DNA of 64,000 nt from an uncultured Verrucomicrobia subdivision 3 bacterium (GTDB lineage Bacteria > Verrucomicrobiota > Verrucomicrobiia > Limisphaerales > UBA11358), in NCBI GenBank assembly GCA_903870815.1, contig CAIQEI010000111.1, forward strand, positions 28 to 64,027, given 5' to 3'. The notes beneath the pieces were generated by a model, which saw only the letters and a list, made by a program, of their open reading frames with translations, was not told the DNA's origin and did not search any database. How positions within the stretch are numbered: the stretch's first letter is position 1; every line of letters starts with the position of its first letter. Shown here piece by piece: positions 419-64,000 of this stretch. The translations under genes were made by a program, and so were the position numbers.

Positions 419-436
419 TTGCCGCAAGATGAGCGC

Positions 437-29717: not shown

Positions 29718-32114
29718 TTAAAAAGCGATTTCCTGCACCATCGGCTGTTGGTTGCGAAGTAATGTCAGTTTGGCCTTCTGCCCGGCGGAATTGACGATTA
29801 CCTTCAGAAAATCATTCACCCCTCTTACCTCGCGGCCGTTCCATCGCGTGATGAAGTCACCCGTTCGCAATCCGTCCGCGAACGCGGTCGCCGTGGCCGG
29901 GACATCCACCAGCAGGATTCCCTGCGAACCGGCGTGCACGCCCACGACGGAATACTCCTCGCCAATTAATCCGCGGATCGTCGCGCCGAGCCAGATCGTT
30001 TGGGCACCCGGGGCAGGTTGACCTCCGGTAACCATGGTGACGACAGGGATTGCCGTGGTGCGCGCCAGCGCCTTTAAGCGGGGCGATTGCACGCCGAACT
30101 GATCTATTGGAAAATTCACGAAGCCCAGTTTCAACGCGGGCGACTCGGGCCGAACCCGAAAATCACCGGCGGCGGCGTTCACAAATAGTGCATCGCCCGC
30201 GAGCGAATGCGCATCGCACCCTTGCGCGGCATATTTTAGTCGGTCTGCCTCCGAACCTGTAAAAAGGTTGTAATCAATTTTCGCTCCCCATTTGGGGATG
30301 GTCATGTAGATCGGGCGATACTCCGTCATCACGATGTTGTGGGCAAAGACATCGCCGCTGTTCTCATACCAGACGTGCAGATGCAGGCTGTTGTTCACGA
30401 TGACGTTGTTCGTGGCAATCCGCTGGAACCCTTCGCGCAATTTCAGCCCGCCGTTCAGCAGCAGGTTATTGTAGATCACGTAATGGCTGGAGCCGTCATC
30501 CAGGTCAATGTCCCAGCCGTGGTCGCAGCGCCAGCGGTTGTTCCGCAGGGTGTTGGGCTGCACCACATCCAAGAGGGCCAGTTTGGGCAGTTCCCCGGCC
30601 GGTACGCCGCCCAGGTTCCAATAGCGGTCGCGGCCCCAGGAATTGAAACTGCCGTGGTCGCCCGTTTCTTTCACCGTGTCAAAGACGTCGCAGAACTCGA
30701 TGACATGCCCGCCCCAGCAGCCGTCGCCGATGTTGATGCCCGCGCGGGGCACGTCGTAGATGGAGCAATGGCGGACGGTGATCTGCTGCGCCATATCGAT
30801 CTCCACCGGCGCGGTTTGTTTCTCGAATCTTCCCGTCCGGGTGATAAGGCAGTCTTCAACCACGCAGTCGGCGGGAAAGTTGTCCGTCAGCGGGCCGGGT
30901 GTCTGGTCGATGGTTAAGAAGTTGTTCTGCGCCTGCCAGCCGATGCCGTTGCGAACGGCTTTGGGATCGCCGACAAACGCGATGCCGTTCGCGCCGCCCT
31001 CGCGAATGAGGCAGCTGCGGATGGTCAGGCGGCGGTTATAGTCGTTGACGAAAATACTGTTGCCGCCCAGTTGGTCAAAGTCGCAGTCCGCGATGGCGCA
31101 ATCCGTCGCGCCGTTGAACAGCACCGCGCCGCCGCGATAAATGGTCCAGTCCGTGCGCAGCATCGGCTCGCGGTTTTCCATAAAAGTCCGCGCCGCGTGC
31201 TGGAAAGTGATTCCGCGCAGGGTGACGAATTTCACCGGCTGCCCCTCGGTGCCGGTGAATTCCACCAGGTTTCGGAGACCCACGACTTCGATGGTTGCCG
31301 TCTTCAAATCCAGGCCCGCTGGCGGGATGAACAGGAGCGTGTTGGATTTCGCATCATGAAACCATTCGCCGGGGGCATCCAGTTCTTCGCGGAGGTTTTC
31401 CACGAAACGAAATTCCTTGTGCATCCCGCTGGGCCGGTTGTTCTGCCAGCCGCCTTCGTACATAAGCGAACCATCGGCATTTTTGCCCAGTATGCGCCAG
31501 TGCATGTCGCCCCAGAGCAACTCGTGCATCGCGTGGATATAGCCGCCGGTGGGATCGCTCCAGTGCGCGACGCGCTCCGGCGAAATGGCGTCTGCCGCCG
31601 TGCCGTTATAGATCGCCGCGTTGGGATCGTAATTGGGGTAACGCGCCATTGATTGGCGCTCGCCGTTCACAAATAACTGGTCCATTACGAGCCCGGCGGG
31701 CGTTGGGGCCTGAAAAATGCCGTTTCGCAGTGGCGTCCATTCTAGCTTGAGCCGCCGGCCCCCGCTGATGACGGGCGTTTCGCCCTGGGCCGCCGCATAA
31801 ACTACGGGCCATTTTTTAGTGCCGGAATCCGCCGCCGTGAACCGGAGCGGTTCGGGCAAATAATAGACGCCCGTATGCAACCACACCGTCACCGGTCGGT
31901 GCCCGGCAAACGGGCGGGCCATCTGTTGCGCGGCGGCGAGCGTGGCTAGCGGTCGGGCTGCGGTCCCGGGATTGGAATCGTTGCCGGCCGGCGAAACGTG
32001 GATTTCCGCGGCTAAACCTTTCATCGCCAGCAAGACAGACGAAAACCAGATGAAAAAAAGGTGTCTCAACTGGACTGCGTTTGGGCCGCGATGGAGGGCT
32101 GTTGCTGGATGCAT
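29718..32114 (-). CDS. Secreted right-handed parallel beta-helix protein with C-terminal PDZ domain
   Basis: Signal-like FFIWFSSVLLAMKGLAA, then IHVSPAGNDSNPGTAARPLATL (typical pectate-lyase-fold N-cap). Repeated G/N-rich beta-helix turns. C-terminal PDZ-like GILLVDVPATATAFADGLRTGDFITRWNGREV. ATG 32114 chosen over ORF-track start 32276. Confidence 0.7.
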   Translation of the reverse strand: MHPATALHRGPNAVQLRHLFFIWFSSVLLAMKGLAAEIHVSPAGNDSNPGTAARPLATLAAAQQMARPFAGHRPVTVWLHTGVYYLPEPLRFTAADSGTKKWPVVYAAAQGETPVISGGRRLKLEWTPLRNGIFQAPTPAGLVMDQLFVNGERQSMARYPNYDPNAAIYNGTAADAISPERVAHWSDPTGGYIHAMHELLWGDMHWRILGKNADGSLMYEGGWQNNRPSGMHKEFRFVENLREELDAPGEWFHDAKSNTLLFIPPAGLDLKTATIEVVGLRNLVEFTGTEGQPVKFVTLRGITFQHAARTFMENREPMLRTDWTIYRGGAVLFNGATDCAIADCDFDQLGGNSIFVNDYNRRLTIRSCLIREGGANGIAFVGDPKAVRNGIGWQAQNNFLTIDQTPGPLTDNFPADCVVEDCLITRTGRFEKQTAPVEIDMAQQITVRHCSIYDVPRAGINIGDGCWGGHVIEFCDVFDTVKETGDHGSFNSWGRDRYWNLGGVPAGELPKLALLDVVQPNTLRNNRWRCDHGWDIDLDDGSSHYVIYNNLLLNGGLKLREGFQRIATNNVIVNNSLHLHVWYENSGDVFAHNIVMTEYRPIYMTIPKWGAKIDYNLFTGSEADRLKYAAQGCDAHSLAGDALFVNAAAGDFRVRPESPALKLGFVNFPIDQFGVQSPRLKALARTTAIPVVTMVTGGQPAPGAQTIWLGATIRGLIGEEYSVVGVHAGSQGILLVDVPATATAFADGLRTGDFITRWNGREVRGVNDFLKVIVNSAGQKAKLTLLRNQQPMVQEIAF

Positions 32115-32280
32115 ATGATGAAGGTAGTGAATCCGTAGCGATGCGTCATGTAAATATCGGTTTGCCCGTGGCCAAAGTGCAGGGATCTCAATTGTTTTAG
32201 TAACGAATATTTTGCGTATTGATCTGGCCTCTCGTATATTATTAAAAATCCATATATAACCCTTAAAATACTGCATGACA

Positions 32281-32345: not shown

Positions 32346-35300
32346 GTGAAAATCAAACTTCCCCTCCTCACCCTTGCTGCCGCCCTGTTGTTGGCGGACG
32401 CCGGTTCGGCTGTCAGCCAGACCTCGCTGTCCATCAGCAATAATTCATTTGAACTCCCTGCGTCCGGCGGTCAGCAAATTTACATTTCCGGCACCGGGGC
32501 AACCTCCACTTTCGTGAATGGTTGGACCACTGCTACCACTGCCGGCTATTGGGACCTGCAGTACACCAACAATACCGCCGGCGTAACGAATAAAGATGGC
32601 TTGCAATTACTCGAGTCCTACGATGTGGGAGGGGGTCTTGCCGGTGTTGTTTACCAGGAATTGACCAACAAGTGGGTGGCGGGTGCCACCTACACACTCA
32701 CCGCCCGGGCGGGACAGGCCCCCGGGTCTGGTAATACCCCGAATACGGGTGACACCTTTTCGATTGACGCCAACAATGGCGGCACGCTTACCCAATTGAG
32801 TTCCACCACCATAGCCAATACCAAGGTTGGATTGCTCAATTACACGGTCACCTATACCGCGACCGGCAGTGAGCCTGGTGATGGACATGTTGTGGTTGCT
32901 TTCCATGTCCCCAGTCAGGCGAACACGGGCGGGATGTGGATTGATGATTTCGCCCTTACCTCTGCCCTGACACCGGATCCCTCTGTTACCACCCCCGCTT
33001 CGCAGACAGAACAGCCCGGCCAGACGGCTACGTTTAGTGTGACTGCTATTGGAACAGCGCCGTTGAGCTACCAGTGGCAGGCGACGAACAGCGCTGGTGG
33101 CGGATTTACGAATTTGCTGAATGGCGGCCCGTTTTCGGGGGCCAACACCAACGTGCTGACGATTTCCAATGTGTCCAGCAACAATCCGCTGCTGTATCAG
33201 GTGATTGTGACGAACGGTCTCGGTGCCTCCGTCACCAGCAGCGTGGCCAGATTGTCGTTGGTTGCGCCGGTTCTCATTGATGTCGACATCAACACCGGGA
33301 GCACGCCCACGCAAACCGGCGCGGCGGTTTTTGGCACTGCGGGTGATACCTGGAACGGCGTCACCGGTAACACCGGCAATCTTAAGGGTTCTGGCAATAA
33401 CACCTTGTCCGGCGTCGGGTTCTTCATTTCAGGCAACACCGGCCTCAATGACAACACCGGTGGCGTCGCACTCATGGATGCGGCCACCACGCCCTTGATG
33501 CGGGATACCGCCTATGGTGGTCCCAGCGTCACCTTCACAACCGGCATCAACGGGCTAAACAGTTATTTAAATCTTCCATTTACCTTGGTGGTTTATGCTA
33601 GCATCGGTGATACCAACCAGGGTGCCAAGCTGAACCTGGCGGGGGCCACGGGTGGAAATTCGGCCAGCCAATTGACCACCACCGGATACTCTCGATCGCT
33701 CACCAATACGCCTCCGGTCGGCGGGCTGGGCGCTGCCTACCAGACGTTCACGGGCATTATCACCAATAGCACGCTGACGATCACCTGCGCCAACGACCTC
33801 AGTAGCTATAGCGGCGTGAATGGCTTCCAACTTCAGATTCAAGTTCCGAATCCGGGGATTACGACCCAGCCGGTTTCGCAGACGGATCCGGCGGGAACCA
33901 CGGTGGTATTCAGCGTGGTGCCTTCAGGGAACTCTCCTTTTGGTTATCAATGGCAGGCCAACGGCGGCACGGGCTATACCAACTTGAGCGACGGCGGGCA
34001 GCTTGCGGGTTCTTCAAGCAACGTCCTGACCTTGGCCGGCATCACGACCAACCAGGCGCTGGCCTATCAGGTGATTGTGACCAACAGCAGCGGCTCAGTC
34101 ACCAGTTCCCCGGCCAGCCTGACGGTGCTTACCGTTCCGGTCATCACGACCCAGCCGGTGTCGCAAACGACCATCGCCGGCGGTCAGGTGTTGTTCAGTG
34201 TGGCCGCCGTGGGGGCGGTGCCATTGAATTACCAATGGCAGGCGACCAACAGCGCCACGGGCGGCTTCACCAACCTCGCCGATGGCGGCCCGATTGTGGG
34301 GTCGCAAAGCAATCTCCTGACCCTGACCGGCGTAAGCACAAATTGGCCTTTGGCCTATCAGGTGATTGTGGCCAATAGTTATGGTTCCGTCACGAGCAGC
34401 GTGGCGAATCTTACCGTGCTGCCCTTCGTAGCGCCGCCCGTCGTACCCAACCCGGGAGCAATGGGGCCGTCGCTGGCGGCCAATGTTTCAGGAAATTGCT
34501 CCGCGCCGCCGCCGAATCTGGTCTCCTCCAAGGTGACCGGCGGGCTTGTGGCCGGCAACGGTGACCTGGGCATCACGGTGGGCGGGCCTTCGTCCGCGTT
34601 GAAATTTTACGTGGGCAAGGCGGATTTCTTCGGCGTGTTGCGCGGGGCAATCACGCCGGTGGGTTCGCTGACCCTAAGCGCGCCCGCTTTGAATGGCAGT
34701 TCGTATTCGCTGAATGAAAACATCGGGTCAGCCACTCTGACGGGCGCATTTGCGAATGGGGCCTCCAGTTTGACGGTGACTTCCTGGGTGGCGGCGGCGG
34801 AGAACACGGCCGTGATCCAGTTGAACAACAGCGGATCGCAACCGCTGGCCCTGACCAGCCAGTTGCTGGACGGTCTGGCCTTGAGTGCCGGTAATCCGGC
34901 GACCTACGGTTCCACGAACAACTCGACTTGGCTGTACGTGTCGCCGGATACGGTGTATGTCGAACTGGGTAACCAATTGCACAACAATCTGGGCACGGCG
35001 CCATTCACCGGGAAGATCGCCGACTTCCGGCTGTTCACCCAGGCGTTATCGGGCGCGACGTTGGCGGCGTTGGACAATGTGGGTGCGCCGACACCGTTGC
35101 TGCGCTGGTCACCGACGAACTCGGGGACGGCGACGCTGGTGGGGAATGCGAGCCTGAACGGTGGGGATCCGCATGGCGGGTCGGTGTCGGTGAACGGCGG
35201 GTCGGACGAGGTGGCGGTGGGGGACATGCCGCTGCCGGAGAACCAGTTCACCTTCTCCACTTGGATCAACGTGGCGAGCACGGGCGTGAACGGGAACATT

Positions 35301-38300
35301 GTGACCGCGCAGATTCCCTTTGCTCCATTGTATGGCTATCCATATCCCTATCCGCGCGGCTTGACCTTGAGATTGGTGAACGGGGCGTTGAGCGCCTCAC
35401 TGAACCAGAGCGGCGTTTATATGATCCATAGCGGCGCTGATACCCAGGGCAACGATCAGTTCAATGCCGACGCCGTGAACAAATTCGCGACTACGGCCGG
35501 CAGTCCGATTCCGGCCAACCAGTGGGTGCAGGCCGCAGTGACGTATGACGGCAATGTGTTGAGGATTTATACGAATGGCGTCCAGGTGGGAGTCACGGCG
35601 CCCTTTCCCACCGGCATAAACGGGATGCTGGGTTGGAACAAATTGGCGGTCCATATCGGTGACACGAATGTACCTTACAACGGATGCGCGCCGCAGGCCG
35701 TGCTGGTGCAAAATATTTTAGGCGCCACGACCACGACGAATAGTCAGGGCGCGCTGGCGTTCATGATCTCGGCAGGCGGGCAGGTGACGATCGCTTTGGC
35801 GGCGGTCACGGACCGGAACAAAACGAATTATTTTGCGGCGGCGCAGCAGCAGACGCAGGCGGCCACAACCGGTTCCTTGAGCAATTTGTTTTTGGCGCAC
35901 AACGCGTGGTGGAGCAACTTTTGGACGAAGTCGTTCGTGCAGATCCCGAATCAACGGATTCAGGACAGTTGGTATGCGTCGCTCTATCTGCTGGCCTGCT
36001 GTAGCGTTTCCAACGCGCCCGCGCCGGGTTTGTGGGGCAATTTCGTTACGGCCACCACACCGGAATGGTTGGGCGACTACACGCTCAACTACAACTACCA
36101 ATCGCCATTTCTTGGAGCGTTGGCGTGTAATCACACAGAATTGGCCGAGAATTATGACCAACCGTTGCTCGACCAGATGGGGCGTGGGCGTGCGGCGGCG
36201 CAGGATATTTTTGGGGGTAACAACAACGGCCTTTATTTCCTTTGCCACCTCATTCCTTTCCCGGGACCGAGTGATGATATTTTTGGTTTTGAAGGCATGA
36301 AATCCAGTTCTGTCTTTGCGGCGGTCGATTGTGTGACGCGCTGGCGCTACACGCGGGACCCGAACTACGCGTCGAAAATCTACCCGTTTCTTAAAGGCGT
36401 TGCCGATTTTTGGGACAACTATCTGGTGGACACCGGCGGTTACTATGTGGATTACAACGATTCCTGGAGTGAATTTACCGGCAATGACACCAATCCAGCC
36501 ATGACGCTGGCCTTCATCCGGCACGTCTATCCGTCGCTGGTGGAGATCTCCCAACTATTGAACCAAGATGCCGGTCGCCGGGCGAAATGGAACGACATCA
36601 TTGCGCGGTTGTCGCCATTGCCGATCGTGCCAGCCAGCAGTATTGCCAGCTTGAACGCATTAGGCGCTCCTTACAACGCGCCCGGCGTCAATGTCATCCG
36701 CGCCACCTCATCTGGCGGAGCCTTTTACCCTAATCCTGCGGTTACATTATATCAGGATCATGCTATACGCGGAAACGTTGGTCAGGGTCCAATGACGGCC
36801 ATCTATCCGGGCTGGAACATCGGGCTGGAAAGCGATCCCTACACATTGCAAGCCGCATACAACACTGTCTGGCTCACGGGCTCTTGGTTTGATTACAATG
36901 CCAATAACTTTTCTTACCCCAGCGCGGCTTGCGTGGGTTTCGACCCCATTCAAATCCTGACAAACCTTGATACGTTACTGGCGCTCTACCGCAACAGTAA
37001 TTTCATGATTGATGTCGGCGGTGGCGGGACGGAACAATTTTCCGTCGTGCCCGGCACGTTGGCCGCGATGTTTGTGCAGAGCTACCAGACGAACATTCAC
37101 GTGTTTCCCAACTGGCCTACAAACCAGTCGGCCACCTTCGGCAATCTGAATGCCTGCGGCGGGTTCTTGGTGTCTGGGGCGATCACGTTGGGGTCAGCGA
37201 ATTACCTCCAGATCCAAAGCACCGCCGGGCAAATGCTCAAGCTGGTCAATCCCTGGCCGGGCGCAGCCGTGCAATGCGTCTCGAGTCTGACTGGCATCAG
37301 CACTCTGTCTGGGACAGTTCTCTATTATCAAACCCAGGTGGGCGAAGTGCTGACCTTGACGTCTACTTTGGCCACGAACCTGCCGGCACCTGCGAACCTG
37401 ACGGCCAGCCTGAGCGGCGGTTCAGCATTGCTGACGTGGAATGGCGTGCCGGGGGCGGGCGGTTACAACGTGAAACGGGCGACCAGCATTGGCGGCCCTT
37501 ATTTGAACGTGACCAGCGGGATCACGGCTACCAATTTCAACGATGGCAGTCTGACGGGACACACGACTTATTATTATGCGGTCACGGCATTGGCACCGGG
37601 TTTTGAGAGCACCAACTCTGCCGTGGTTACGGTCGCGCCGCCGGTCATCGCCAACGGGTCGTTCGAGGCCAACAACGTGCCGATTCCCCCTGGCTATGAA
37701 ACGAGTGCCTTCCCGACCAGTTGGAGTTCGGCCAATGCTTCTGGTCCCGTGATTACCGCAGTCGTCACACCTTATTCAGGTGATGGCCGGTTCGCTTCGT
37801 ATCCCGTCCCCGGCATGGATGGCACCAATTATTGCCAGATTTTTATGAACGGTGGTAGTGGTGGAGAAATGATTTACCAAGACTTGGGCGCGGCCAATAA
37901 ATATCAGGCTGGCACAACTTACACGTTGACGGCAGCGTTCGGGCTGGAGCGGGGGATTTTCCCGACGGGGACGCTGGTGCTGTGCAATTCGGCGCTGACG
38001 CCCATCGCCACGAAGACCATCACCTCGGCGATGCTCAACTCGAACGCATTCACCAGCTATAGCGTGACCTACACGGCGACGGGCAGTGAAGGGGGCAACG
38101 GGGACATCGTGGTCGGGTTCAGCACCACCGGCGCGGCTGCCGGTAACTCCTTCGATGTGGACAACGTGCGCCTGACCGCGCTCGCTCCGGTCAGCACCAA
38201 TGCGTATTTGACCTCACTGGTTTTGAATCCGGCGGGAGCCTTGACGCCTGCCTTTGCCTCCAACGTGCTGAGCTACGTAGCGACCGAGGCGTATGGCAGC

Positions 38301-38747
38301 AGCCCCACCGTGACGGTGGTCAATGCCAATGGGAACGCGACAAATCAATTGGTCTACAACGGCGTGACGAACGTGTTGGCTTCCGGGGTGGCCAGTGCCG
38401 CCTTGACCTTGAACCCGAATCCGCCGGTGACGAACGTGGTGCAGGTTCAGGTGACGGCTCAGAATGGGGTGACGATGCAGACCTACACGGTGAACGTGAC
38501 CCGATTGCCGAACCAGGCAACCCAGCCGAATCTAACCAATAGCGTAACGGGCGGGACATTGAACTTGAGCTGGGGATCGGATCGAATGGGCTACCGATTG
38601 CTGGTTCAGACCAATAACCTGAACCAGGGGGTGAGCAGCAACCCGAACGATTGGGCGACCGTGATCGGTTCGACCGCGACCAATGCGTTGGCCATTCCCA
38701 TCGTCACGACCAACTTTGATGAATATTACCGGCTGGTATATCCCTGA
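32346..38747 (+). CDS. Giant secreted multidomain protein 1 (2133 aa). Order: signal peptide, DUF642-like CBM, Ig-like, unknown X module, 2 Ig-like, GH95-like core with inserted LamG, FN3, DUF642-like CBM, cadherin-like beta-sandwich, 79-aa C-terminal domain
   Basis: Signal MKIKLPLLTLAAALLLADAGSA. NNSFELP..IDDFAL module. Ig-like repeats with YQWQA..YQVIVTN. GH95-like GNGDLG N-domain and GLWGNF..W.GDYTLNYNYQSPF. LamG FTFSTWIN..WVQAAVTYDGNVLRIYTNG. FN3 LTWNGVPGAGGYNVKR..TYYYAVTA. The uninterrupted 6.4-kb frame has protein-like composition. Confidence 0.85.
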   Translation: MKIKLPLLTLAAALLLADAGSAVSQTSLSISNNSFELPASGGQQIYISGTGATSTFVNGWTTATTAGYWDLQYTNNTAGVTNKDGLQLLESYDVGGGLAGVVYQELTNKWVAGATYTLTARAGQAPGSGNTPNTGDTFSIDANNGGTLTQLSSTTIANTKVGLLNYTVTYTATGSEPGDGHVVVAFHVPSQANTGGMWIDDFALTSALTPDPSVTTPASQTEQPGQTATFSVTAIGTAPLSYQWQATNSAGGGFTNLLNGGPFSGANTNVLTISNVSSNNPLLYQVIVTNGLGASVTSSVARLSLVAPVLIDVDINTGSTPTQTGAAVFGTAGDTWNGVTGNTGNLKGSGNNTLSGVGFFISGNTGLNDNTGGVALMDAATTPLMRDTAYGGPSVTFTTGINGLNSYLNLPFTLVVYASIGDTNQGAKLNLAGATGGNSASQLTTTGYSRSLTNTPPVGGLGAAYQTFTGIITNSTLTITCANDLSSYSGVNGFQLQIQVPNPGITTQPVSQTDPAGTTVVFSVVPSGNSPFGYQWQANGGTGYTNLSDGGQLAGSSSNVLTLAGITTNQALAYQVIVTNSSGSVTSSPASLTVLTVPVITTQPVSQTTIAGGQVLFSVAAVGAVPLNYQWQATNSATGGFTNLADGGPIVGSQSNLLTLTGVSTNWPLAYQVIVANSYGSVTSSVANLTVLPFVAPPVVPNPGAMGPSLAANVSGNCSAPPPNLVSSKVTGGLVAGNGDLGITVGGPSSALKFYVGKADFFGVLRGAITPVGSLTLSAPALNGSSYSLNENIGSATLTGAFANGASSLTVTSWVAAAENTAVIQLNNSGSQPLALTSQLLDGLALSAGNPATYGSTNNSTWLYVSPDTVYVELGNQLHNNLGTAPFTGKIADFRLFTQALSGATLAALDNVGAPTPLLRWSPTNSGTATLVGNASLNGGDPHGGSVSVNGGSDEVAVGDMPLPENQFTFSTWINVASTGVNGNIVTAQIPFAPLYGYPYPYPRGLTLRLVNGALSASLNQSGVYMIHSGADTQGNDQFNADAVNKFATTAGSPIPANQWVQAAVTYDGNVLRIYTNGVQVGVTAPFPTGINGMLGWNKLAVHIGDTNVPYNGCAPQAVLVQNILGATTTTNSQGALAFMISAGGQVTIALAAVTDRNKTNYFAAAQQQTQAATTGSLSNLFLAHNAWWSNFWTKSFVQIPNQRIQDSWYASLYLLACCSVSNAPAPGLWGNFVTATTPEWLGDYTLNYNYQSPFLGALACNHTELAENYDQPLLDQMGRGRAAAQDIFGGNNNGLYFLCHLIPFPGPSDDIFGFEGMKSSSVFAAVDCVTRWRYTRDPNYASKIYPFLKGVADFWDNYLVDTGGYYVDYNDSWSEFTGNDTNPAMTLAFIRHVYPSLVEISQLLNQDAGRRAKWNDIIARLSPLPIVPASSIASLNALGAPYNAPGVNVIRATSSGGAFYPNPAVTLYQDHAIRGNVGQGPMTAIYPGWNIGLESDPYTLQAAYNTVWLTGSWFDYNANNFSYPSAACVGFDPIQILTNLDTLLALYRNSNFMIDVGGGGTEQFSVVPGTLAAMFVQSYQTNIHVFPNWPTNQSATFGNLNACGGFLVSGAITLGSANYLQIQSTAGQMLKLVNPWPGAAVQCVSSLTGISTLSGTVLYYQTQVGEVLTLTSTLATNLPAPANLTASLSGGSALLTWNGVPGAGGYNVKRATSIGGPYLNVTSGITATNFNDGSLTGHTTYYYAVTALAPGFESTNSAVVTVAPPVIANGSFEANNVPIPPGYETSAFPTSWSSANASGPVITAVVTPYSGDGRFASYPVPGMDGTNYCQIFMNGGSGGEMIYQDLGAANKYQAGTTYTLTAAFGLERGIFPTGTLVLCNSALTPIATKTITSAMLNSNAFTSYSVTYTATGSEGGNGDIVVGFSTTGAAAGNSFDVDNVRLTALAPVSTNAYLTSLVLNPAGALTPAFASNVLSYVATEAYGSSPTVTVVNANGNATNQLVYNGVTNVLASGVASAALTLNPNPPVTNVVQVQVTAQNGVTMQTYTVNVTRLPNQATQPNLTNSVTGGTLNLSWGSDRMGYRLLVQTNNLNQGVSSNPNDWATVIGSTATNALAIPIVTTNFDEYYRLVYP
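38191..38747 (+). repeat. Copy 1 of the ~557-bp shared 3' module (cadherin-like domain plus C-terminal domain)
   Basis: Aligns by eye at the nucleotide level with 43135-43692 and 47611-48167. Confidence 0.85.
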
Positions 38748-38871: not shown

Positions 38872-41800
38872 ATGAACGATAGAAACCGTCGGGTGTTTGT
38901 TGACCCAGTAATTCATCCATTAATGGACTCATTCATGATCTGTGCTTGTAATCTTCCGCCTGGACGCCACATTCGAATCGTTCGAACCATCGTTGCTTCA
39001 GCAATTTTGTGGATGGGCTTGACGGCGGCATTCGCGTTTACGCCTTACACTACGAACCAGTTGGTGTTCGTTAACGTGGATCATGCGCCGGTGGGGGCGC
39101 TCTCGACATTTGCCTATGGTTATAAGGGTGCGAACTGTGGTCTGGGCATGTCCAGCGCGGCCATTCCCTATAGCGCCGGCGGGGGCGGCGTGATTGTGGC
39201 CTTGTCCGGAAATTCGGGTTTGCAGGCACTGCCGTTTGTCGCGTCCCCCGCGAGCATCGGCTCCAGTGCCACTTTCTTTGCCGACGCCAATGTCCAGCGG
39301 AATCTGACCCCCTGCACCGACCAGTGGAATGTGCCCGCCGCCGGCTTGTCCTTTACGCATTTCACTCCGGCTTGGTCTATGCCGGACATCAATACGGCGA
39401 GCCAGACCGAAAAAAAACGGTTCTTCCTGCCGGCGACCTGGATGACTTTCATCGTCACCAACAATACCGGCGCTGCCGAGGATTTTTATTTCGGTCTGCC
39501 GGCGGCGGCGACGCCGACAAGCTTCGCCAATGGTGCCTATCAGGGTTTTGCCCTCGGCGAGGCGGCCTTGGCTGTGCCGGCCGGCAGTTGCGATTTGTTG
39601 ACTGGCAGCAGCCTGACGGCGGTGTTGAACGGGGTCACCAGCGGTTTCGCCTTTCACCTCGGCGTGCCGGCGGGTCAGACCAGGTCGCTCACCGTCGTGG
39701 TCGCCTACTATCGCAGCACCGCCGTGGATACGCGAATTAACGCCGCCTATTATTACACGAAGCTGTTCAGTTCGAGGGATGATGTGATTGATGGCGCGTT
39801 CGCGGAATTCCCCGATGCCCGGGCTCGCTGTTTGCAATTGGCTAATGCTCTGCAAAATGCCGGCCTCAACCCCTACCGCCAGTTTCTTGCCAGCGACGCG
39901 CTGCACAGTTACCAGTGTAACGTCGCGTGCCTGGTGGACCCCGGCAACGGCGTCTATTGGCGGGAAGTCGAAGGCGCTTACGGGAACATAAACACCTGTG
40001 ACCTGATGGTGGATCACGCTTTCTATGAAGTGATGATGCATCCGTGGGCGTTGCGCAACGTGCTGGATGCGTTTTCCGGCGCGTCGAATGCCGGCATTGG
40101 GTACACGTTCACCCATCCGCTTTACAATGAGACCACGGGCAGCCAGGTGTCCGCCAACGGCTTTTCCTTCCAGCACGAGATGGGTGGCAATACCAGCAAC
40201 GGCCAGGTTTCCAACGATCCCACCACTGACCCGACCGAATACGAAACCGTGTTTTCCTACATGGGGCAGGAGGAACTGGACAATTGGATCACCTGCGCCG
40301 GACTTTATTGGACGCATACGGGCGATAACGCCTGGCTCACCAACAATGCCGCCTTGCTGCGGTCGTGCCTGAATTCCCAACTGTTGCGGGACGACACCAA
40401 TTCTGCGGCTCGCGATGGCGTCACGACGTATGTCAACTACTCGACTCAATCCGGTAAATACGAGATAACCACCTACGATTCGCTGGATCCCTCGCTCCAG
40501 GATCCCCGTGGCGGCGCCTACACCGCCATGAAAAACTGGGCGGCTTACCTTGCGCTTCAGGCCATGTTCAACCAGTTGGGTGACACCGCCGATGCTTTAA
40601 TTTCCAGCAATCAGGCGGTGGTGTGTTCTCATTCGATCACGAATGGATGGAATGCCACGCTCGGTTTCGTTCCGGCGTCGTTGACCGGCGCCAACCCGTC
40701 GGCGACGCTCCCCATTCTGGAGGGGCTGGCTTTGGCGCAGTGGATGGGTTTCACCAACGCCACCGACCGGCAGGCTGGTCCTTATGCCGCCATGCTGCAG
40801 ACGCTGCGCAATCATGCGCTCGCGGTGCTGGTGCCAGGCAAATGTCTGGATGCGACCAGCGGCGGTTTGAAGATCACCAGCGCCAACGACAATACCTTTC
40901 CGAGCAAAGTGTTTATCGCCCAATACGCCGCCGAGACGGTGCTGGGTCTGACCGGCAACTCGGTGGATGGAACCGTGGACCAGGTGAATGCCACTTTCCA
41001 AATGCAGCAAGCCCCCTGGCAGGGGTTGTCAGATCAGATCAACACCCCCGGCGGCACCACGCCCGCGAACTCGAGCCTGCATTATCCCCGCGGCATCACC
41101 AGTGCGCTCTGGTGGTTGACGCCCACCAACAACCCGGCCTATCCGCTTCCGGCTTCCGCGCCATCATCTCCCACCGGCCTGACCGCTCTTGCTGGCAACG
41201 GCCAGGTGGTGTTGGTCTGGAATGCCTCGGCGCAAGCCGCGGGCTATAATGTCAAGCGCGGAACGTCCAGCGGCGGGCCCTACTTTCCGGTGGCGGCCTC
41301 TGTCAACGGGGTCAGTTACACCGACCTAGGCGGCGCCAACGGCGCCACTTATTATTATGTTGTTACCGCCACCAACCAGATTGGCGAAAGTTTGCCTTCC
41401 GCTGAAGCCAGCGTGACTCTGGTTCCGGTTTTGGAGCAGTTGAATATCCAAAATAATTCCTTCGAGGCCCAGAGTGTGAACGCCGGCACCTATGTGGTTG
41501 AGAATCCGACTGGCTGGAGTGTATCCGGGCCGTCGCTTGGGGTGGTGGCGCTCGTGCATCCCAATGCGACCGATGGCCGGGGCTTTGGCAGCATTCCCGT
41601 TTCCAGCCTGAATGGCAGCAATTATTGTCAGATTTACAGCACCGGCAATAACGACAGCGGTATCGTCTATCAGGACACGGGATTCAAGTATCGGGCGGGC
41701 ATGACCTACACGTTGACGGCGGCTTTCGGCCGGGAAAACAACCCATTCCCCGGGGGCTCGCTGGTTTTTTATAACTCTGCGCTCGTCGCCATCGCCTCCA

Positions 41801-43692
41801 ACCAAATCAGCTCCGCCAATCTCACTTTGGGTTCGTTCAAGGATTTCAGTGTCACCTATAGTGGTACTGGCAGCGAGGGTGGCAACGGCGATATCGTCGT
41901 CGGTTTCAACCTCGTAGGCGCCGCCTCGGGCAGCGCTTTTGACTTCGACAACGTGCGCCTGGTCTCCCCGCCCGTCATTACGGGCCAGCCGGTTTCCCAA
42001 ACGATCGCGGCCGGTGGCAGCGTTTCGTTCAGAATCGGGGCATCGGGAACGGCGTCGTTGAGCTGCCGCTGGCAGGCCGGTCCGCTGGGTGGACCCTATA
42101 CCAACTTGCTCAATGGCGGCCAGATTTCAGGAGCCAATTCCAATGTCCTTACTCTTACCGGCGTGAACACCAATTGGGCGCTGGCTTATCAGGTGATCGT
42201 GACCAACAGTTATGGCTCCGTCACCAGCACGCCGCCCGCGACCTTGACTGTATTGGACCTCCCGATCATCACCGTTTCGCCTGCCTCCCAAGTTGTCGTC
42301 GCCGGCAGCTCGGTTTCATTTGGGGTCAACGCTTCGGGAACCGGACCGTTCGGCTATCAGTGGCAGGCTAATGGCGGGACAGGTTTCACCAATTTATTGA
42401 ACGGCGGCTTGGTCTCGGGTGCGAACAGCAACGTCCTGTCTATTGCCAGCGTGACGACCAACTGGGCTTTGGCCTACCAGGTGATCGTCACCAACTACTT
42501 CGGAGTTGTCACCAGCAGTCCGGCGGCGATGCTGACGGTAACGACGGTCAGCCAGACAATCAACCTGCTGATTGATGTCAACTTTGTCACCTCCGGTGCC
42601 ACCACGCAAACGGGGGCGGCGGTGCTCGGTTTCTCGAATGATGTTTGGAACGCTCTCAGTGCCTCGACCAGTAGCATCACCAACAGCGCCGGCAGCCTTC
42701 TGGGCGGAGTCGGATTGACTTTGAGCAACCAGGGGGTTTTTAAAAACTCCGGTGGTACCGCCATGGATGCCGCCACCACGCCCTTGATGCAGGATTATGC
42801 CTATGGCACCACCGCCCCGGCCTCGGTCACCGTGAGTCTCACCGGGCTGGTGCCCTACACGAACTGTGCTTTTACCCTCGTGGTCTATGGTGCGGGGGAC
42901 ACGAGTGGGCAGGGGACTGCGCTCCGGCTCACCGGCGGCGCCACGGGCGGGAATACGGCCGGCAACCTGACCACCAGCGCCGCCTCGCGGCAGATTTCAG
43001 CGGGGATTGGCATCGCCTACCAGACCTTCACGGGCACTCTGACCAATGGCACCCTGACCTTTGTCGCCACCAACAACGGGTCAATCTACACCATCGTGAA
43101 CGGGTTCCAGCTTCAGTTTGTACCACCGCCGACGGTCAGCAGCAATGCCTGGCTGACGTCGCTGGCTTTGAGCCCGGCTGGCATCCCGTCCCCGGCCTTT
43201 GCCTCCAACACGTTCGTGTATTTTGACACGACCACTTACGGAGCCACGCCTGTCGTGACGGTCACCAACGCCGACCTGACCGCGACCAACCAGTTGATTT
43301 TCAACGGCACGACCAATTTGCTCGTATCGGGTGTGGCGAGCGCTGCCCTGGCCCTGAACCCGAATTTAGGAGTGACGAACGTCGTTCAGGTGCAGGTGAC
43401 GGCGCAGAACGGTGTGACGATGCAGACCTACACGGTGAACTTGACCCAATTGCCGAATCAGGCAACCCAGCCTGTTTTGATGAACAGCATGAGCAATGGG
43501 ATGTTAAATTTGAGTTGGGGACTGGATCGGCTGGGCTACCGGTTGATAATGCAAGCTAACAATCTAAACCTGGGCGTTAGCAGCAACCCGAACGATTGGG
43601 CGACTGTGTCCGGTTCGACCGTGATCAACGCGTTGGCCATTCCCATCGTCACGACCAACTTGGATAAGTATTACCGGCTGATTTATCCGTGA
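38872..43692 (+). CDS. Giant secreted multidomain protein 2 (1606 aa). Order: signal peptide, GH52-like domain, FN3, DUF642-like CBM, 2 Ig-like, X module, cadherin-like beta-sandwich, C-terminal domain
   Basis: GH52-like blocks recalled from Geobacillus XynB2: NVDHAPVGALSTFAYG, EGAYGNINTCDLMVDHAFYEVMMHPWALRNVLDAF, GFSFQHEMG, EITTYDSLDPSL, HYPRGITSALWWL. FN3 VLVWNASAQAAGYNVKR. The start may be ATG 38935 (MICAC..), which gives a normal-length signal peptide. Confidence 0.85.
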   Translation: MNDRNRRVFVDPVIHPLMDSFMICACNLPPGRHIRIVRTIVASAILWMGLTAAFAFTPYTTNQLVFVNVDHAPVGALSTFAYGYKGANCGLGMSSAAIPYSAGGGGVIVALSGNSGLQALPFVASPASIGSSATFFADANVQRNLTPCTDQWNVPAAGLSFTHFTPAWSMPDINTASQTEKKRFFLPATWMTFIVTNNTGAAEDFYFGLPAAATPTSFANGAYQGFALGEAALAVPAGSCDLLTGSSLTAVLNGVTSGFAFHLGVPAGQTRSLTVVVAYYRSTAVDTRINAAYYYTKLFSSRDDVIDGAFAEFPDARARCLQLANALQNAGLNPYRQFLASDALHSYQCNVACLVDPGNGVYWREVEGAYGNINTCDLMVDHAFYEVMMHPWALRNVLDAFSGASNAGIGYTFTHPLYNETTGSQVSANGFSFQHEMGGNTSNGQVSNDPTTDPTEYETVFSYMGQEELDNWITCAGLYWTHTGDNAWLTNNAALLRSCLNSQLLRDDTNSAARDGVTTYVNYSTQSGKYEITTYDSLDPSLQDPRGGAYTAMKNWAAYLALQAMFNQLGDTADALISSNQAVVCSHSITNGWNATLGFVPASLTGANPSATLPILEGLALAQWMGFTNATDRQAGPYAAMLQTLRNHALAVLVPGKCLDATSGGLKITSANDNTFPSKVFIAQYAAETVLGLTGNSVDGTVDQVNATFQMQQAPWQGLSDQINTPGGTTPANSSLHYPRGITSALWWLTPTNNPAYPLPASAPSSPTGLTALAGNGQVVLVWNASAQAAGYNVKRGTSSGGPYFPVAASVNGVSYTDLGGANGATYYYVVTATNQIGESLPSAEASVTLVPVLEQLNIQNNSFEAQSVNAGTYVVENPTGWSVSGPSLGVVALVHPNATDGRGFGSIPVSSLNGSNYCQIYSTGNNDSGIVYQDTGFKYRAGMTYTLTAAFGRENNPFPGGSLVFYNSALVAIASNQISSANLTLGSFKDFSVTYSGTGSEGGNGDIVVGFNLVGAASGSAFDFDNVRLVSPPVITGQPVSQTIAAGGSVSFRIGASGTASLSCRWQAGPLGGPYTNLLNGGQISGANSNVLTLTGVNTNWALAYQVIVTNSYGSVTSTPPATLTVLDLPIITVSPASQVVVAGSSVSFGVNASGTGPFGYQWQANGGTGFTNLLNGGLVSGANSNVLSIASVTTNWALAYQVIVTNYFGVVTSSPAAMLTVTTVSQTINLLIDVNFVTSGATTQTGAAVLGFSNDVWNALSASTSSITNSAGSLLGGVGLTLSNQGVFKNSGGTAMDAATTPLMQDYAYGTTAPASVTVSLTGLVPYTNCAFTLVVYGAGDTSGQGTALRLTGGATGGNTAGNLTTSAASRQISAGIGIAYQTFTGTLTNGTLTFVATNNGSIYTIVNGFQLQFVPPPTVSSNAWLTSLALSPAGIPSPAFASNTFVYFDTTTYGATPVVTVTNADLTATNQLIFNGTTNLLVSGVASAALALNPNLGVTNVVQVQVTAQNGVTMQTYTVNLTQLPNQATQPVLMNSMSNGMLNLSWGLDRLGYRLIMQANNLNLGVSSNPNDWATVSGSTVINALAIPIVTTNLDKYYRLIYP
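43135..43692 (+). repeat. Copy 2 of the shared 3' module
   Basis: The stretch beginning aatgcctggctgacgtcgctgg differs from copy 3 at 6 of 84 positions counted by eye. Confidence 0.85.
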
Positions 43693-43769: not shown

Positions 43770-46700
43770 ATGCCCGCCATTGTCTCCTTTAAAATTCTGT
43801 ATCAGTCGGCTCTCGCAATTGTAATCGGCAGCATGTTGGCCTCGCCTGTCCTGGCCGCAAACTTGATCTCCAACGGCACGTTTGAGACTCCCAATGTCGG
43901 CGCCGGCAATTACCCGCAATACGCCTCTGGCAGTACCGCCATAACGGGCTGGACGGTGGATTCCACGCCTGCGGACGGGGTTTCGCTCATGGCGAGCGGG
44001 GTCATTACCGTCAACGATGGCACCCAGATCCTGCAACTGACGGGTGGCGCTGGTAATGTCTATTCCGCTGGGGGTGGTATCCATCAAACCATCACCACCA
44101 CGTCGAACCAGGTCTACAACCTCAGCATTGATGTCGCCTCGCGCCAAAACAATTCCGTCACCGGCAAGTTCAGTTTCGGTGGGCAAAACCATGCCCTCAC
44201 CGTCAGCAGCGCCACCTTTACTACCCTGACGTGGACGGTCACGGCGACGAATACCAATCCGGTGATTGATATCACCGGCAGTTCTTCCTCGAGCAGCGCC
44301 CAATTGATCATTGATAATGTGAGCGTGACGGTGCCGGCGGGGCCGGTGAATGCCGGAACTTCAACCGTTGCGGTGGCCCCAAACTCAATCCCGGCAGACG
44401 GTTCGACCACTTCCACTATCACGGTCAGCTTACAGGATGCCGGCGGCAATCCGGTCCCCGGCAAGACCGTCACCCTGGCTTCCAGCCGGGGAGCCGCCGA
44501 TACAATATCGGCGTCGTCGGGAGCTTCCAGTGCCTCGGGGACGGTGACCTTTACTGTGCGATCCTCCACGACCGGTACGGCGGTTTTTAGTGCCACCGAT
44601 GCAACCGACAGTCTTCCCTTAACTCAAACCGCCGCCGTGTTCGTGTATGCCGTCGGTTCAAAAGGTCCGCAGGCATCGCCCGTCCCCATCGTGTTCGACC
44701 AGACCGCCACGAACGACAACTTGATCGTCCTGATGGCCGCCGCCTCCGAATACAGTTCCAATCTAACCTTGTATCAAGACGGGCCCTCGGCGTATCCAAA
44801 ACATTTCTGGATCAATAATTGGAGCAATGGCACCAATGACTACTTCAAGTGGAACGTGGCGCTGGCCACTGGCGCGGTTTATCACGTGTATGCCAAGCTC
44901 AGCGCCGGGGCGACCGTGCCGGTCCAGTTGAGCATCACAGGCACCAACACGGTGCTGAATTTCACGACGCGCCCCATCGGTTGGGACAAGCTGGATTGCG
45001 GCACCATCAGCCTTCCGGCCGGCACGAAACAGTTGGTGCTGCGGAAAAACACCACCGATACTACGCAGGTCATTTCCATCAAATCCCTGGAACTGATCCG
45101 GCAATCCGACCTGCCGGCCTATCAGCAGCGCGTGGCCAGTTTCCGGGCCGATACGACTTGGATGAGCCAGGCCAAGTATGGCTTGATGACCCAGTTCGGT
45201 CCGTGGGGCTATCCCCCCACCGGACCGCAACCGTCCTTGCAGAACATGGCCAATGGCTTCAGTGTGAGCAATTTTGTCAATCTGGTCACGAACACCGGTT
45301 GCAAATACGTCATCTTTTCGCTGACGTGGTGGAACTATCAGATGCTGGCCCCCATTCAAGCCGTGACCAACATTGTTCCGGGCAACCCCAACCTCACCTC
45401 GACGCGGGACGTGATCGGGGAACTTTCCACTGCTCTGCATGTCGCCGGTGTCCGGTTCACACTGTATTATCATTGTGGCTCGGATAGTCAGAGTCCCGGT
45501 GGCTATGGCAGCACGCCTTGGTGGCAGGCGCAACAGTTTCCCGAGCCGGGCTATACGGAGCGGGGAGTCGCAGATCGGAGCATCTTCTTCACCAATTGGT
45601 TCAATGTGATCTCCGATATCGGGAACCGTTACGGTACCAATCTGGACGGCTGGTTCATTGACGATGGTCTCGTGTATTACCCGGCGCCTTTCGAGCATTT
45701 GGGCCAGGCCGCCCGGGCGGGGAACCCCAACCGGCTGCTGTGCTATAATTCCTGGATTGCCACCGAATATACCGATTTTCAGGATGTGTTTATGGGCGAA
45801 AATTCGCAGGGTCAGAGCCAGTTTGGTAGCGCTCCCAACGGCGGTAATGGGGTTTTTACTGATGGGCCGCAGGTCGGGTTGTTGCAGCACGGGATGTTCA
45901 CGATGGAACAGGATTGGGGGATACACCAGGCGAACCAGCCGATCACCACCCAGATTACCGCCAGTCAGGCCATCGGGTGGGTGCAAAGCGCTAGCGCGCT
46001 CGGCGTGCCGCTTTCGTTTAACATGATGCTGTGGTCAGACATGACCTACTCGACTAATTCCTTGAACGTGTTGTTGAACCTGAAAAGCGCCATCTATGGC
46101 GGCAGTAGTGCCAGTTTATCAACTAATAATCTGGTGGTGAATGGCACCTTTGAATCCCCGACCGTTGCCTCCGGCGCCACCTTGCTTTCAGCCGGCAGCA
46201 CCGCCTTGACCGGTTGGACGGTGGATACCACGCCTTCGGACGGGATCCAGTTTGGCGCCGCGGGTACCTTCGGCCCCAACAACGGCTCTCAGAACGTGCA
46301 ACTCTCGGGTGGCAGCACCTATGCAGTGGGGGGCGGAATTTCGCAGACGATTGCCACGATCCCGGGCGCAACCTACACCATCATCATTGACGTCGCTTCC
46401 CGCCAGGGTAATGCCATCGCCGGTAATTTCAGTTTTGGCGTCAGTAACTACGTCCTCAACGCCAGTAGTGCGTTTTTCACGACCCTGACCTGGAAAGTCG
46501 TCGCCACTGGATCCAATACGCTCATCAATATCACGGGCTGTACCAACTCGGTCGGCAGTCAACTGCTGATTGATAACGTGAGTGTGACGCTGTTTTCAGA
46601 TCCAAACTTTAAGACCCAGCCCGGATCGCAAACGACCACCATTGGCGGCACGGCATCGTTCAGTGTGACTGCTGGGGGGACCGCCCCCTTCAGTTATCAA

Positions 46701-48296: not shown

Positions 48297-48668
48297 TTAC
48301 TGGAGTTTATGACCCGGCGTGGCCGTGCTGTAAGTGCATAGCGGATTGCTGCCGACCGTGCTGAGCGAGTAGGTACCATTGGCCGGACAAGCCGGGAGGC
48401 TGCCCGCCGAATTCATCTTGATGTAGGGGGTCAGGTCTCTGGACAGGATGATGGCGTTTCCGGTTGCTTGGCCCTTTTCCAACGCCCATTGGTTCGCCGC
48501 CGCGTCAATCTGGCGGAGGTTGTTGATGCAGGCATTGGCCTGCGCGGTGGCACGGGCTTTCACAAAGTTCGGAATCGCGATGGCCGCCAAAAGGCCGATA
48601 ATGGCCACAACAATCATGATTTCCACCAGGGTGAAACCTCCGCTTCGGAGTTTTTTGCTCTGTTTCAT
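48297..48668 (-). CDS. Prepilin-type N-terminal cleavage/methylation domain protein (T2SS pseudopilin-like), 123 aa
   Basis: GFTLVEIMIVVAIIGLLAAIAIPNF class III signal. CINNLRQIDAAANQWALEKG is typical of short PVC pseudopilin-like proteins. Confidence 0.85.
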   Translation of the reverse strand: MKQSKKLRSGGFTLVEIMIVVAIIGLLAAIAIPNFVKARATAQANACINNLRQIDAAANQWALEKGQATGNAIILSRDLTPYIKMNSAGSLPACPANGTYSLSTVGSNPLCTYSTATPGHKLQ

Positions 48669-48826
48669 AATATTTGCTTTCAGTGTGCGCGGCGGAACTG
48701 CGCATCAGGCGGGTTATATAATTACTTTTGGGTTCCGTTATTGCCTGACACAACCGCTTCGCCTACAACAGTAGCAATGATAAATCCATATGCACTAAAC
48801 TATGCGTATAGCCTTGGCTAATTATG

Positions 48827-48847
48827 TTGTAGGAATAATTCCTACAA
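48827..48847. repeat. Perfect palindrome TTGTAGGAAT-A-ATTCCTACAA
   Basis: 10-bp arms read directly, about 160 bp upstream of the pseudopilin-like gene start. Confidence 0.9.
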
Positions 48848-48914
48848 ATCGGAATTATCGCTGGTCACCAAATCGCGGACCGGCGTTTTGGAGTGCGGCC
48901 GCCCTTCGCCACTT

Positions 48915-49155
48915 TAGAGCGTTTGAAGAAATACTGTAGCCGTTCGGAGCGAGGATTTTTGTGTGTTGGAGAGGCTTTTGCGAAGGAGCAGGTTCAATGG
49001 AACCCTTCCCATGAACTACCCTGTTCAAGGGCCGTGAGCAGTTTCAAATTGAAACTGGAAGCTGTGACTGAGCCGAAACGAAGCAAAAACCCAAAAAAAC
49101 CGCCCTCTTACTTCGGTCAAACCGAACCGGCTACAGTATTTTTGAACATGCTCTA
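48915..49155. repeat. MITE-like or structured element (~240 bp) bounded by ~33-nt imperfect inverted repeats
   Basis: Left arm tagagcgtttgaagaaatactgtagccgttcgg. Right arm ccgaaccggctacagtatttttgaacatgctcta. The 14-nt core AAATACTGTAGCCG/CGGCTACAGTATTT is a perfect complement. Central perfect palindrome CAGTTTCAA-A-TTGAAACTG at 49039-49057. Confidence 0.6.
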
Positions 49156-62069: not shown

Positions 62070-62401
62070 CTGGGGTTTTTTTTAGCGGGTGGGAGATCCG
62101 TCCGCTGTTCCCATTGGTTCAAGAGCTGGCGCAACTGTTCGCGTTCCTGCTGGCGTTGCACCTGTTGCTCCAGTTGTTGCACCCGGCGTTGGAGCGATTC
62201 CTTCTCCGGGTCCGTTGGCGTCTTGGGCCGTCCCGTCGGCTGATCCTCCAGTGCTGATAACAGGGCCTGTAACGCCCGTTGTTCCCACTGGTAGTATTGC
62301 TGGCGGGAGATGCCCAGCGTCTGTGCTGCCTCGGTCGCCGTCATTTGGTCGGAGCGAACCTTGAAGATCAGCTCCGCCCGCTGCCTGGCTTTGGCATTCA
62401 T
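62066..62401 (-). CDS. Transposase accessory HTH/leucine-zipper protein, 111 aa
   Basis: MTATEAAQTLGISRQQYYQWEQRAL HTH followed by a Q/E/L-rich coiled coil. Confidence 0.7.
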   Translation of the reverse strand: MNAKARQRAELIFKVRSDQMTATEAAQTLGISRQQYYQWEQRALQALLSALEDQPTGRPKTPTDPEKESLQRRVQQLEQQVQRQQEREQLRQLLNQWEQRTDLPPAKKNPR

Positions 62402-63941: not shown

Positions 63942-64000
63942 CTGATGTGTTAGTCTGAGACGCAAGAAAGGACCAGACGCATGAAAGGCAAACGATACAC

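Follow-up and report, generated by a model that had tools for sequence, protein, structure and literature searches.

The window analysed here, a stretch of 64,000 nucleotides of contig CAIQEI010000111.1 from an uncultured Verrucomicrobia subdivision 3 bacterium, carries three adjacent, co-directional genes on the plus strand (A, B and C), each of which ends in 79 related codons followed by a stop. The C-terminal domain (CTD) encoded by these codons belongs to a family that is undescribed in Pfam, NCBIfam, the PDB sequences and the literature searched. We tentatively regard it as a C-terminal sorting or retention tag, namely a strictly terminal, FN3-like family carried by very large Sec-exported verrucomicrobial proteins and analogous, not homologous, to type IX secretion system (T9SS) CTDs. 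This reading is based on the terminal position and sharply conserved free end of the domain, its portability, its several copies per genome, and a conservation above that of the cargo. It also takes into account the restriction of the CTD to one lineage and the slot it occupies, which is held elsewhere by PEP-CTERM or autotransporter barrels on PATR and choice-of-anchor proteins. The original prediction of a candidate sorting or anchoring signal was borne out as far as the signature is concerned, which is terminal, portable and absent from Pfam and NCBIfam; the function itself found no support, and a passive binding module is a live alternative.

The terminal domain, its carriers and its hosts

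The three tails lie at 38508-38747 (copy A, ending YYRLVYP), 43453-43692 (copy B, ending YYRLIYP) and 47928-48167 (copy C, ending YYRLVYP). Their translations are exactly the equally long 79-amino-acid segments, with the same consensus, that had been read from the DNA before; copy A is also supported by the family hidden Markov model (HMM) and by an AlphaFold2 model. The tails share 71-77% of their amino acids and 76-78% of their nucleotides in pairwise comparisons, with dS values of 0.76-1.02 and dN/dS ratios of 0.17-0.20 (Nei-Gojobori). They are old paralogues under purifying selection, and their likeness is far beyond chance. With dS at 0.8-1.0, neither a recent duplication nor recent gene conversion can account for the three copies.

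In A, B and C the conserved block exceeds 79 amino acids. The preceding cadherin-like domain of about 100 amino acids is equally conserved (70% identity between A and B over 198 amino acids), and the two domains, with a short linker of the form L-P-(N/S)-Q-x-x-x-P between them, form a terminal cassette of about 185 amino acids that recurs in 82 of 150 database representatives at 58-78% identity. At least four kinds of upstream module precede the CTD in the family, the cadherin-like one being the commonest (82 representatives). Because the 79-amino-acid unit also follows at least three other kinds, its sequence context identifies it as a genuine separate domain. Thus, the proposed 79-amino-acid domain stands as a unit, but in the window it is only the last part of a longer conserved cassette.

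The family is large. When 1.84 billion cluster representatives were searched exhaustively by HMMER with a 12-sequence profile, 2,624 clusters matched at E≤1e-3, 666 of them at E≤1e-10; database counts of position, conservation and carriers given here refer to the best 150 of these 2,624 matches, which are representatives of 50%-identity clusters. The CTD match reaches the last residue of the protein in 148 of the 150, and the terminal heptad reads [FY][FY][RKQ][LM][VI]YP. One of the two remaining proteins has a single extra residue; the other (P0130) has a 34-residue extension that starts with tryptophan and, from its sequence, looks like read-through of a stop codon into Trp. The sole second copy within one protein, at the N-terminus of P0024, lacks the terminal motif and is degenerate. 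Eight residues are invariant among 145 representatives (W22, G28, Q34, G41, S43, D48, W49 and P79) and six are nearly so (R30, L31, T35, N36, L38 and Y78).

The same picture was obtained independently of gene calling, with a degenerate DNA pattern for G-[YW]-R-L-L-x-Q-T-N-[NH]-L followed by HMM verification. A stop follows the CTD directly in 65 of 70 copies from reference genomes (64 true loci of 75 pattern matches) and in 114 of 119 copies from metagenome contigs (112 true loci of 120). A looser subfamily, with the consensus WPADHTGWRLQxQTNxLxxGLGTNWxDVxGS...FYRL(V/R)(Y/H)P, also lies at the C-terminal end in 108 of 118 cases, and exactly three residues follow its [FY][FY]R[LM] motif in 93 of the 118; it has no match in Pfam or NCBIfam. 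In all four sets the domain is thus a property of protein ends, as had been proposed, and is not found internally as often as at C-termini. A weak CTD-like beta-sandwich (E about 2e-4, amino acids 267-333) was seen inside the gene that follows the pseudopilin gene at two genome loci (L045, 5867-7471; L025, 6797-7999). The fold thus has remote internal relatives.

The carriers are otherwise unrelated. Among 40 full-length representatives, 20 contain PATR repeats and 14 cadherin-like domains, and immunoglobulin-like (Ig), LamG, GH95, BNR sialidase-like and polysaccharide lyase domains also occur. The CTD is far more conserved than these carriers, with a median pairwise identity of 56% among 145 representatives. 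With signal peptides assessed by eye and with a hydrophobicity heuristic, 54 of the 103 representatives that reach 400 amino acids or more show a hydrophobic, signal-like N-terminus, and many of the others are evident 5'-truncated fragments. All three window proteins begin with signal-peptide-like sequences by eye. The expectation that several secreted proteins share the domain was therefore confirmed by unrelated Sec-signal-bearing carriers, with several copies per genome. Outside this family, the usual C-terminal end of a PATR protein is an autotransporter barrel or PEP-CTERM, and the choice-of-anchor C family is by its NCBIfam definition found on proteins with varied C-terminal anchors. Named database relatives of the CTD proteins are all annotated as 'hypothetical protein'; the word-indexed protein searches yielded almost only short contig-edge fragments, which are informative on termini, not on architecture or names. 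No record of window protein C was found among known proteins, and the contig of a relative (L076) added local synteny only.

True CTD loci were detected in 38 metagenome-assembled genomes (MAGs), nearly all of them labelled Verrucomicrobia subdivision 3, Limisphaerales or Verrucomicrobiia, and no cultured isolate was among the genome matches. Up to seven loci occur per MAG, a lower bound set by the strict pattern. Copies within a genome are more alike (66% identity) than copies from different genomes (55%; 0 of 1000 permutations). Contig and run metadata indicate peat, bog and humic-lake metagenomes as the source. Members of Verrucomicrobia subdivision 3 are abundant in peat bogs and humic lakes, where they degrade polysaccharides, and almost none of them is in culture. 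MAG labels, like the choice of open reading frames (ORFs) in GC-rich DNA, are imperfect, and true CTD genes also turned up in oddly labelled MAGs (L003, L033, L038, L041, L053, L025, L034, L036 and L058), with labels such as Bifidobacteriaceae 'binchicken', Akkermansia muciniphila, Acidiferrales, Thermoguttaceae and Tepidisphaeraceae. Two of these, L036 and L058, share near-identical sequence before the CTD in two differently labelled SPRUCE bins. The oddly labelled bins are probably mis-binned, mislabelled or contaminated verrucomicrobial contigs.

Predicted structure and comparison with known systems

The AlphaFold2 model of the CTD is all-beta (pLDDT 85), in agreement with the predicted beta-rich character, with strands at residues 10-14, 17-21, 30-37, 60-64 and 70-77 and a short bridge near residue 50, giving five to six strands. 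In Foldseek searches against the PDB the best matches were FN3 domains (Tencon, collagen XX FN3, CDO FN3 and the N-terminal domain of PelI; E about 0.03, TM score 0.45-0.53). The CTD is thus modelled as a small FN3-like beta-sandwich. Its sequence can be mapped onto the FN3 strands A, B (LNLSW), C (GYRLL), C' (NDWATV), E (AIPIV) and F (EYYRLVYP); this mapping and the strand count of the model suggest that the domain stops after the F strand and has no G strand. A tandem model of the cassette is consistent with two beads on a linker rich in P, Q, S and T, and Foldseek matched it to generic Ig, FN3 and cadherin tandems only. A sequence-profile search of the PDB returned nothing (best E 0.78), and the tail alone had no match in a 2025 copy of Pfam at E≤10 and nothing meaningful in NCBIfam (June 2026) at E≤1. 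The full-text literature searched contained no description of the CTD and nothing relevant on its motif (YRLVYP, FYRL), on Verrucomicrobia sorting signals, on Limisphaerales secretion, on DUF1559 or on H-X9-DG.

The closest parallel is the CTD of T9SS cargo proteins (Por_Secre_tail PF18962/TIGR04183 for type A, TIGR04131 for type B). Both kinds of tail are beta-sandwiches of about 80 amino acids at the extreme C-terminus of Sec-exported multidomain proteins, and both sit on many unrelated cargos per genome. The T9SS cargo RgpB has an IgSF-linker-CTD layout in which the CTD adopts a seven-stranded Ig-like fold (PMC4804311). The same order of a beta-sandwich, a short P/Q/S/T linker and a terminal beta-sandwich is found in the family described here, but its modelled CTD has five to six strands and is nearest to FN3. 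Its terminus (...VYP-COOH) is also far more sharply conserved than that of T9SS CTDs, and neither the family nor its looser subfamily matches PF18962, TIGR04183 or TIGR04131 in hmmscan searches (Pfam E≤10, NCBIfam E≤1). The hosts are Verrucomicrobiota instead of Bacteroidota, and to our knowledge no T9SS is known in Verrucomicrobiota. The top 50 Foldseek matches in the PDB are FN3 domains, without a single one annotated as T9SS cargo or CTD, and T9SS core genes (PorK/L/M/N, Sov/SprA, PorU/V) were found neither in the window nor among the recurrent neighbours of CTD genes. Membership in the T9SS CTD group was rejected on sequence, and neither the best fold match nor the host points to it.

With the PEP-CTERM/exosortase, LPXTG, GlyGly-CTERM and MYXO-CTERM systems the CTD family shares the principle that numerous exported proteins of a genome bear a tag at the C-terminus. 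In other Verrucomicrobia, PATR and choice-of-anchor proteins typically carry PEP-CTERM, and the CTD takes the same architectural slot. GlyGly-CTERM cargo of Vibrio provides a precedent for a C-terminal signal coupled to the type II secretion system (T2SS). However, in tags of the PEP-CTERM type a short motif is combined with a transmembrane helix and a basic cluster, whereas the CTD is a folded all-beta domain without a hydrophobic helix. PEP-CTERM membership was rejected, as the tails end in ...TTNxxEYYRLVYP without such a helix, do not match TIGR02595 and have no exosortase in the window. Dockerin-cohesin and SLH modules of Gram-positive cellulolytic bacteria are likewise small C-terminal modules common to polysaccharide-degrading enzymes, and the CTD could similarly dock a common partner. 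Dockerins are calcium-binding helical repeats and SLH modules are helical, in contrast to the all-beta model of the CTD; the model and the missing Pfam match exclude dockerin membership, and no scaffoldin-like partner was found. The best structural match, FN3 as it occurs in bacterial glycoside hydrolases, differs in that the CTD seemingly lacks a G strand, reaches TM scores of only 0.45-0.53 and has no match to the fn3 HMM (PF00041) at E≤10. FN3 domains of the ordinary kind serve as spacers inside proteins, frequently as tandem repeats, and are not confined to the C-terminus, where the CTD lies. A carbohydrate-binding module (CBM) of a known type was excluded because no Pfam CBM family matches the tail (E≤10). 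The beta-domain of autotransporters was also rejected: it is a 12-strand barrel of 250-300 amino acids, the CTD has 79, and the carriers match no autotransporter family.

Candidate partners and possible function

To find genes that accompany the CTD, ORFs were clustered around the 64 genome and 112 metagenome loci. The sole recurrent non-catabolic neighbours are prepilin-type pseudopilins of 230-317 amino acids with a C-terminal H-x9-DG(H) motif. Such a pseudopilin is encoded by the next same-strand gene after 14 of 55 CTD genes in genomes (L008, L009, L010, L025, L030, L038, L040, L042, L045, L057, L059, L061, L064 and L068) and after 19 of 101 in metagenomes, at a distance of 94-502 bp downstream, and all 18 pseudopilin genes in the genome loci share the strand of the carrier. 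When ORFs of at least 400 amino acids in the same loci were compared, a pseudopilin came next after 17 of 73 with a CTD and after one of 109 others (odds ratio 33, p = 6e-7). The linkage is not one conserved syntenic block, because homologous pseudopilins are preceded by different types of carrier. A one-to-one recognition pair of CTD and pseudopilin is unsupported, as no co-variation and no subclade of paired CTDs was found.

We infer recognition, export or retention, and an involvement of pseudopilins in the following form. Sec would take a carrier protein through the inner membrane; after folding in the periplasm, its terminal domain, including the invariant free ...[FY][FY]R[LM][VI]YP-COOH end, would be recognised by one shared component of the envelope. 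This component would then deliver the cargo across the outer membrane or hold it there. The leading candidate for the apparatus is a T2SS- or type-IV-pilus-like system, because H-x9-DG pseudopilin genes are specifically co-operonic with CTD genes. A bolder version, which we consider rather unlikely, makes the CTD the cargo tag of an undescribed display or secretion pathway of Verrucomicrobia, perhaps of the wider PVC group, in which H-x9-DG (DUF1559-class) pseudopilins would act as adaptors or as the receiving fibre. The pseudopilin might in that case supply the missing G strand or read the free ...VYP-COOH end.

Several observations weigh against a sorting or retention tag. As the original prediction had correctly stated, the window contains no exosortase, sortase or T9SS component gene and, apart from a pseudopilin-like ORF, nothing related to secretion; rhombosortase genes are missing from it as well, and no gene for sorting machinery was identified in the window or among the recurrent neighbours at the 176 loci. 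An adjacent pseudopilin is found at just 19-25% of CTD genes. The identities of CTDs and pseudopilins do not co-vary (rho 0.02; Mantel 904/2000), and the paired CTDs form no distinct clade (5 of 17 nearest neighbours, about 3 expected). The other recurrent neighbours are catabolic or regulatory, namely PATR proteins, GH2, GH27/36, GH28, a sulfatase, a GDSL esterase and two-component regulators. The fold match is weak and generic, FN3-like domains being common as passive spacers or binders in glycosidases, and in the tandem model, where the cadherin-like domain is very confident, the CTD reaches a pLDDT of just 58-79. Moreover, the terminal position could largely be inherited with the cadherin-like cassette of the 82 representatives.

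The failure to find a machinery gene in the window or among the recurrent neighbours would be expected if the CTD were a passive cell-surface anchor, a lectin-like or protein-binding module that retains secreted proteins on the envelope of the producer (lipopolysaccharide, capsule or an S-layer-like protein) without dedicated translocation machinery, comparable to SLH domains or dockerin-cohesin pairs. We consider this less probable than a tag, yet the strongest of the competing explanations. A single conserved ligand would account for the high conservation across unrelated carriers and for the similarity within genomes, the conserved residues W22, Y/W29, R30, Q34, N36, D48, W49, Y74 and Y78 are compatible with a binding face, and the large glycosidases of diderm polysaccharide degraders generally need surface retention. 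However, it is not obvious why a binding module should finish precisely on the final residue in more than 95% of cases; several conserved aromatics, mapped by sequence, fall on canonical FN3 core positions and need not form a binding site, and the operonic pseudopilins are left unexplained. Binding could also be directed outward, with the CTD as an unclassified CBM or adhesion module for plant- or peat-derived polymers that is C-terminal by chance. Carriers and neighbours are indeed mostly concerned with polysaccharide degradation (GH95, GH29, GH2, GH28, sulfatases, lyases), CBMs are small beta-sandwiches and often terminal, and the weak Foldseek matches include the FN3-like N-terminal domain of the pectate lyases PelI and Pel3. 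Such substrate targeting is nonetheless improbable in our view: enzymes that differ in specificity carry the same domain at 55-80% identity, as do the PATR-repeat non-enzymes that make up half of the full-length carriers, and CBMs are also N-terminal, internal or in tandem, whereas the CTD is single, terminal and matches no Pfam CBM family even at E≤10.

Least likely, at a small probability, is the absence of any specific role. The CTD would then be a structural, FN3-like end-cap or spacer, spread within one lineage by duplications of the C-terminal cassette, its position being historical and not selected, as the sharing of the whole cassette by 82 of the 150 representatives, the generic fold and the weak internal FN3-like relatives (L045 and L025, E about 2e-4) might indicate. 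Strong purifying selection on old copies speaks against this, as does the recombination of the CTD behind several modules without anything ever having been gained after it. Without selection on a free C-terminus it is also hard to explain why the terminal YP is invariant and why exactly three residues follow [FY][FY]R[LM], as they do in the looser subfamily too; the specific pseudopilin linkage would likewise be unaccounted for. Thus, carrier diversity, terminal exactness and pseudopilin linkage together weaken the CBM and end-cap explanations.

The HMM of the CTD can serve as a predictor of the exoproteome in Verrucomicrobia subdivision 3. A strictly terminal, portable domain on thousands of proteins is a clean query for phylogenetic profiling of its machinery and a testable tag, and the operon linkage is a first functional lead for the very large family of H-x9-DG pseudopilins. 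If the CTD acts in sorting, folded beta-sandwich CTDs would have evolved as export signals a second time, independently and outside the Bacteroidota. Should the pseudopilin pathway be real, it would give a function to this hugely expanded and enigmatic pseudopilin family and explain how uncultured peat and lake bacteria deploy giant glycosidases. Even as a mere binding module, the CTD would still be a new and very large domain family fit for Pfam and NCBIfam.

Genes of the window

Gene A (32346-38747, plus strand, as are B and C) encodes an exported multidomain protein of 2133 amino acids. Its N-terminus (VKIKLPLLTLAAALLLADAGSAVS) is signal-like by eye and is followed, according to ORF and Pfam analysis, by Ig_3/I-set, Laminin_G_3, GH95-like catalytic, cadherin-like and CTD modules. 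The cadherin-like beta-sandwich (PF12733) directly before the CTD lies at 38208-38504 (Pfam amino acids 1955-2053); it is supported by the alignment of A, B and C, and its pLDDT in the tandem model exceeds 90. Gene B (38872-43692) encodes an exported protein of 1606 amino acids with GH52-like, Ig_3/I-set, cadherin-like and CTD modules. The GH52 match (E 1.4e-50) covers only part of the Pfam model (positions 64-413). Because the listed ATG leaves a leader of 35 amino acids before a signal-like h-region (TIVASAILWMGLTAAFA), the true start of B is probably an internal Met. Its cadherin-like domain (43156-43446; Pfam amino acids 1429-1525, E 4.8e-4) is under the gathering score, yet aligns to those of A and C. 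Gene C (43770-48167) codes for an exported protein of 1465 amino acids in which Pfam and NCBIfam recognise, after the signal peptide, DUF642/choice-of-anchor C, Big_1, GH29-like, CBM_4_9, Ig and cadherin-like domains (the last at 47628-47921; Pfam amino acids 1287-1384) before the CTD. The window holds no fourth CTD copy.

The neighbourhood of the three genes is a fucose-type polysaccharide-utilisation cluster with a further GH29 fucosidase and, on the opposite strand, a LuxR-type response regulator and a histidine kinase. The remaining genes are of the housekeeping type: TsaD, squalene-hopene cyclase, DHODH, GAPDH, TonB/ExbB, Pqi/MlaD, an S41/PDZ protease and insertion sequence (IS) transposases. 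Free C-termini are what PDZ domains read, and two PDZ proteins of the window were considered as readers of the terminal peptide: an 852-amino-acid beta-helix protein with a C-terminal DegP-like PDZ domain, encoded divergently from gene A (29718-32276, minus strand), and an S41 C-terminal-processing protease with PDZ (419-1774, plus strand). Both were dropped as specific partners because neither recurs beside CTD genes in 176 other loci.

Convergent to gene C lies a gene for a prepilin-type (GFTLVE) pilin or pseudopilin of 123 amino acids (48297-48668, minus strand). Its product falls broadly within the class of the H-x9-DG pseudopilins that follow CTD genes at other loci. Since the product is shorter, however, and its gene lies on the opposite strand, a connection with the CTD is uncertain here; it may be another type of protein, a major pilin. 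In one peat metatranscriptome run (X18), RNA contigs of at least 90% similarity pile up at 48443-49000, over the 5' part of this gene. The bin has a word depth of about 3,400, with about 10,800 at position 48564, from 17 contigs; over the three CTD genes the depth is 0-36 in the same run. This depth suggests that peat communities contain very highly expressed pilin-like transcripts with the same N-terminal sequence as the window pseudopilin.

Metagenome and metatranscriptome contigs also connect the regions 32900-34200, 42100-42250 and 46700-46850 with one another, for example 34056 with 46813, and 42236 back to 34137. These joins are probably assembler chimeras over paralogous Ig- and CBM-like repeats common to A, B and C. 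At the right end of the window (61026-63965, minus strand), two integrase-core (rve) transposase ORFs, one of them with helix-turn-helix domains, point to an IS element.

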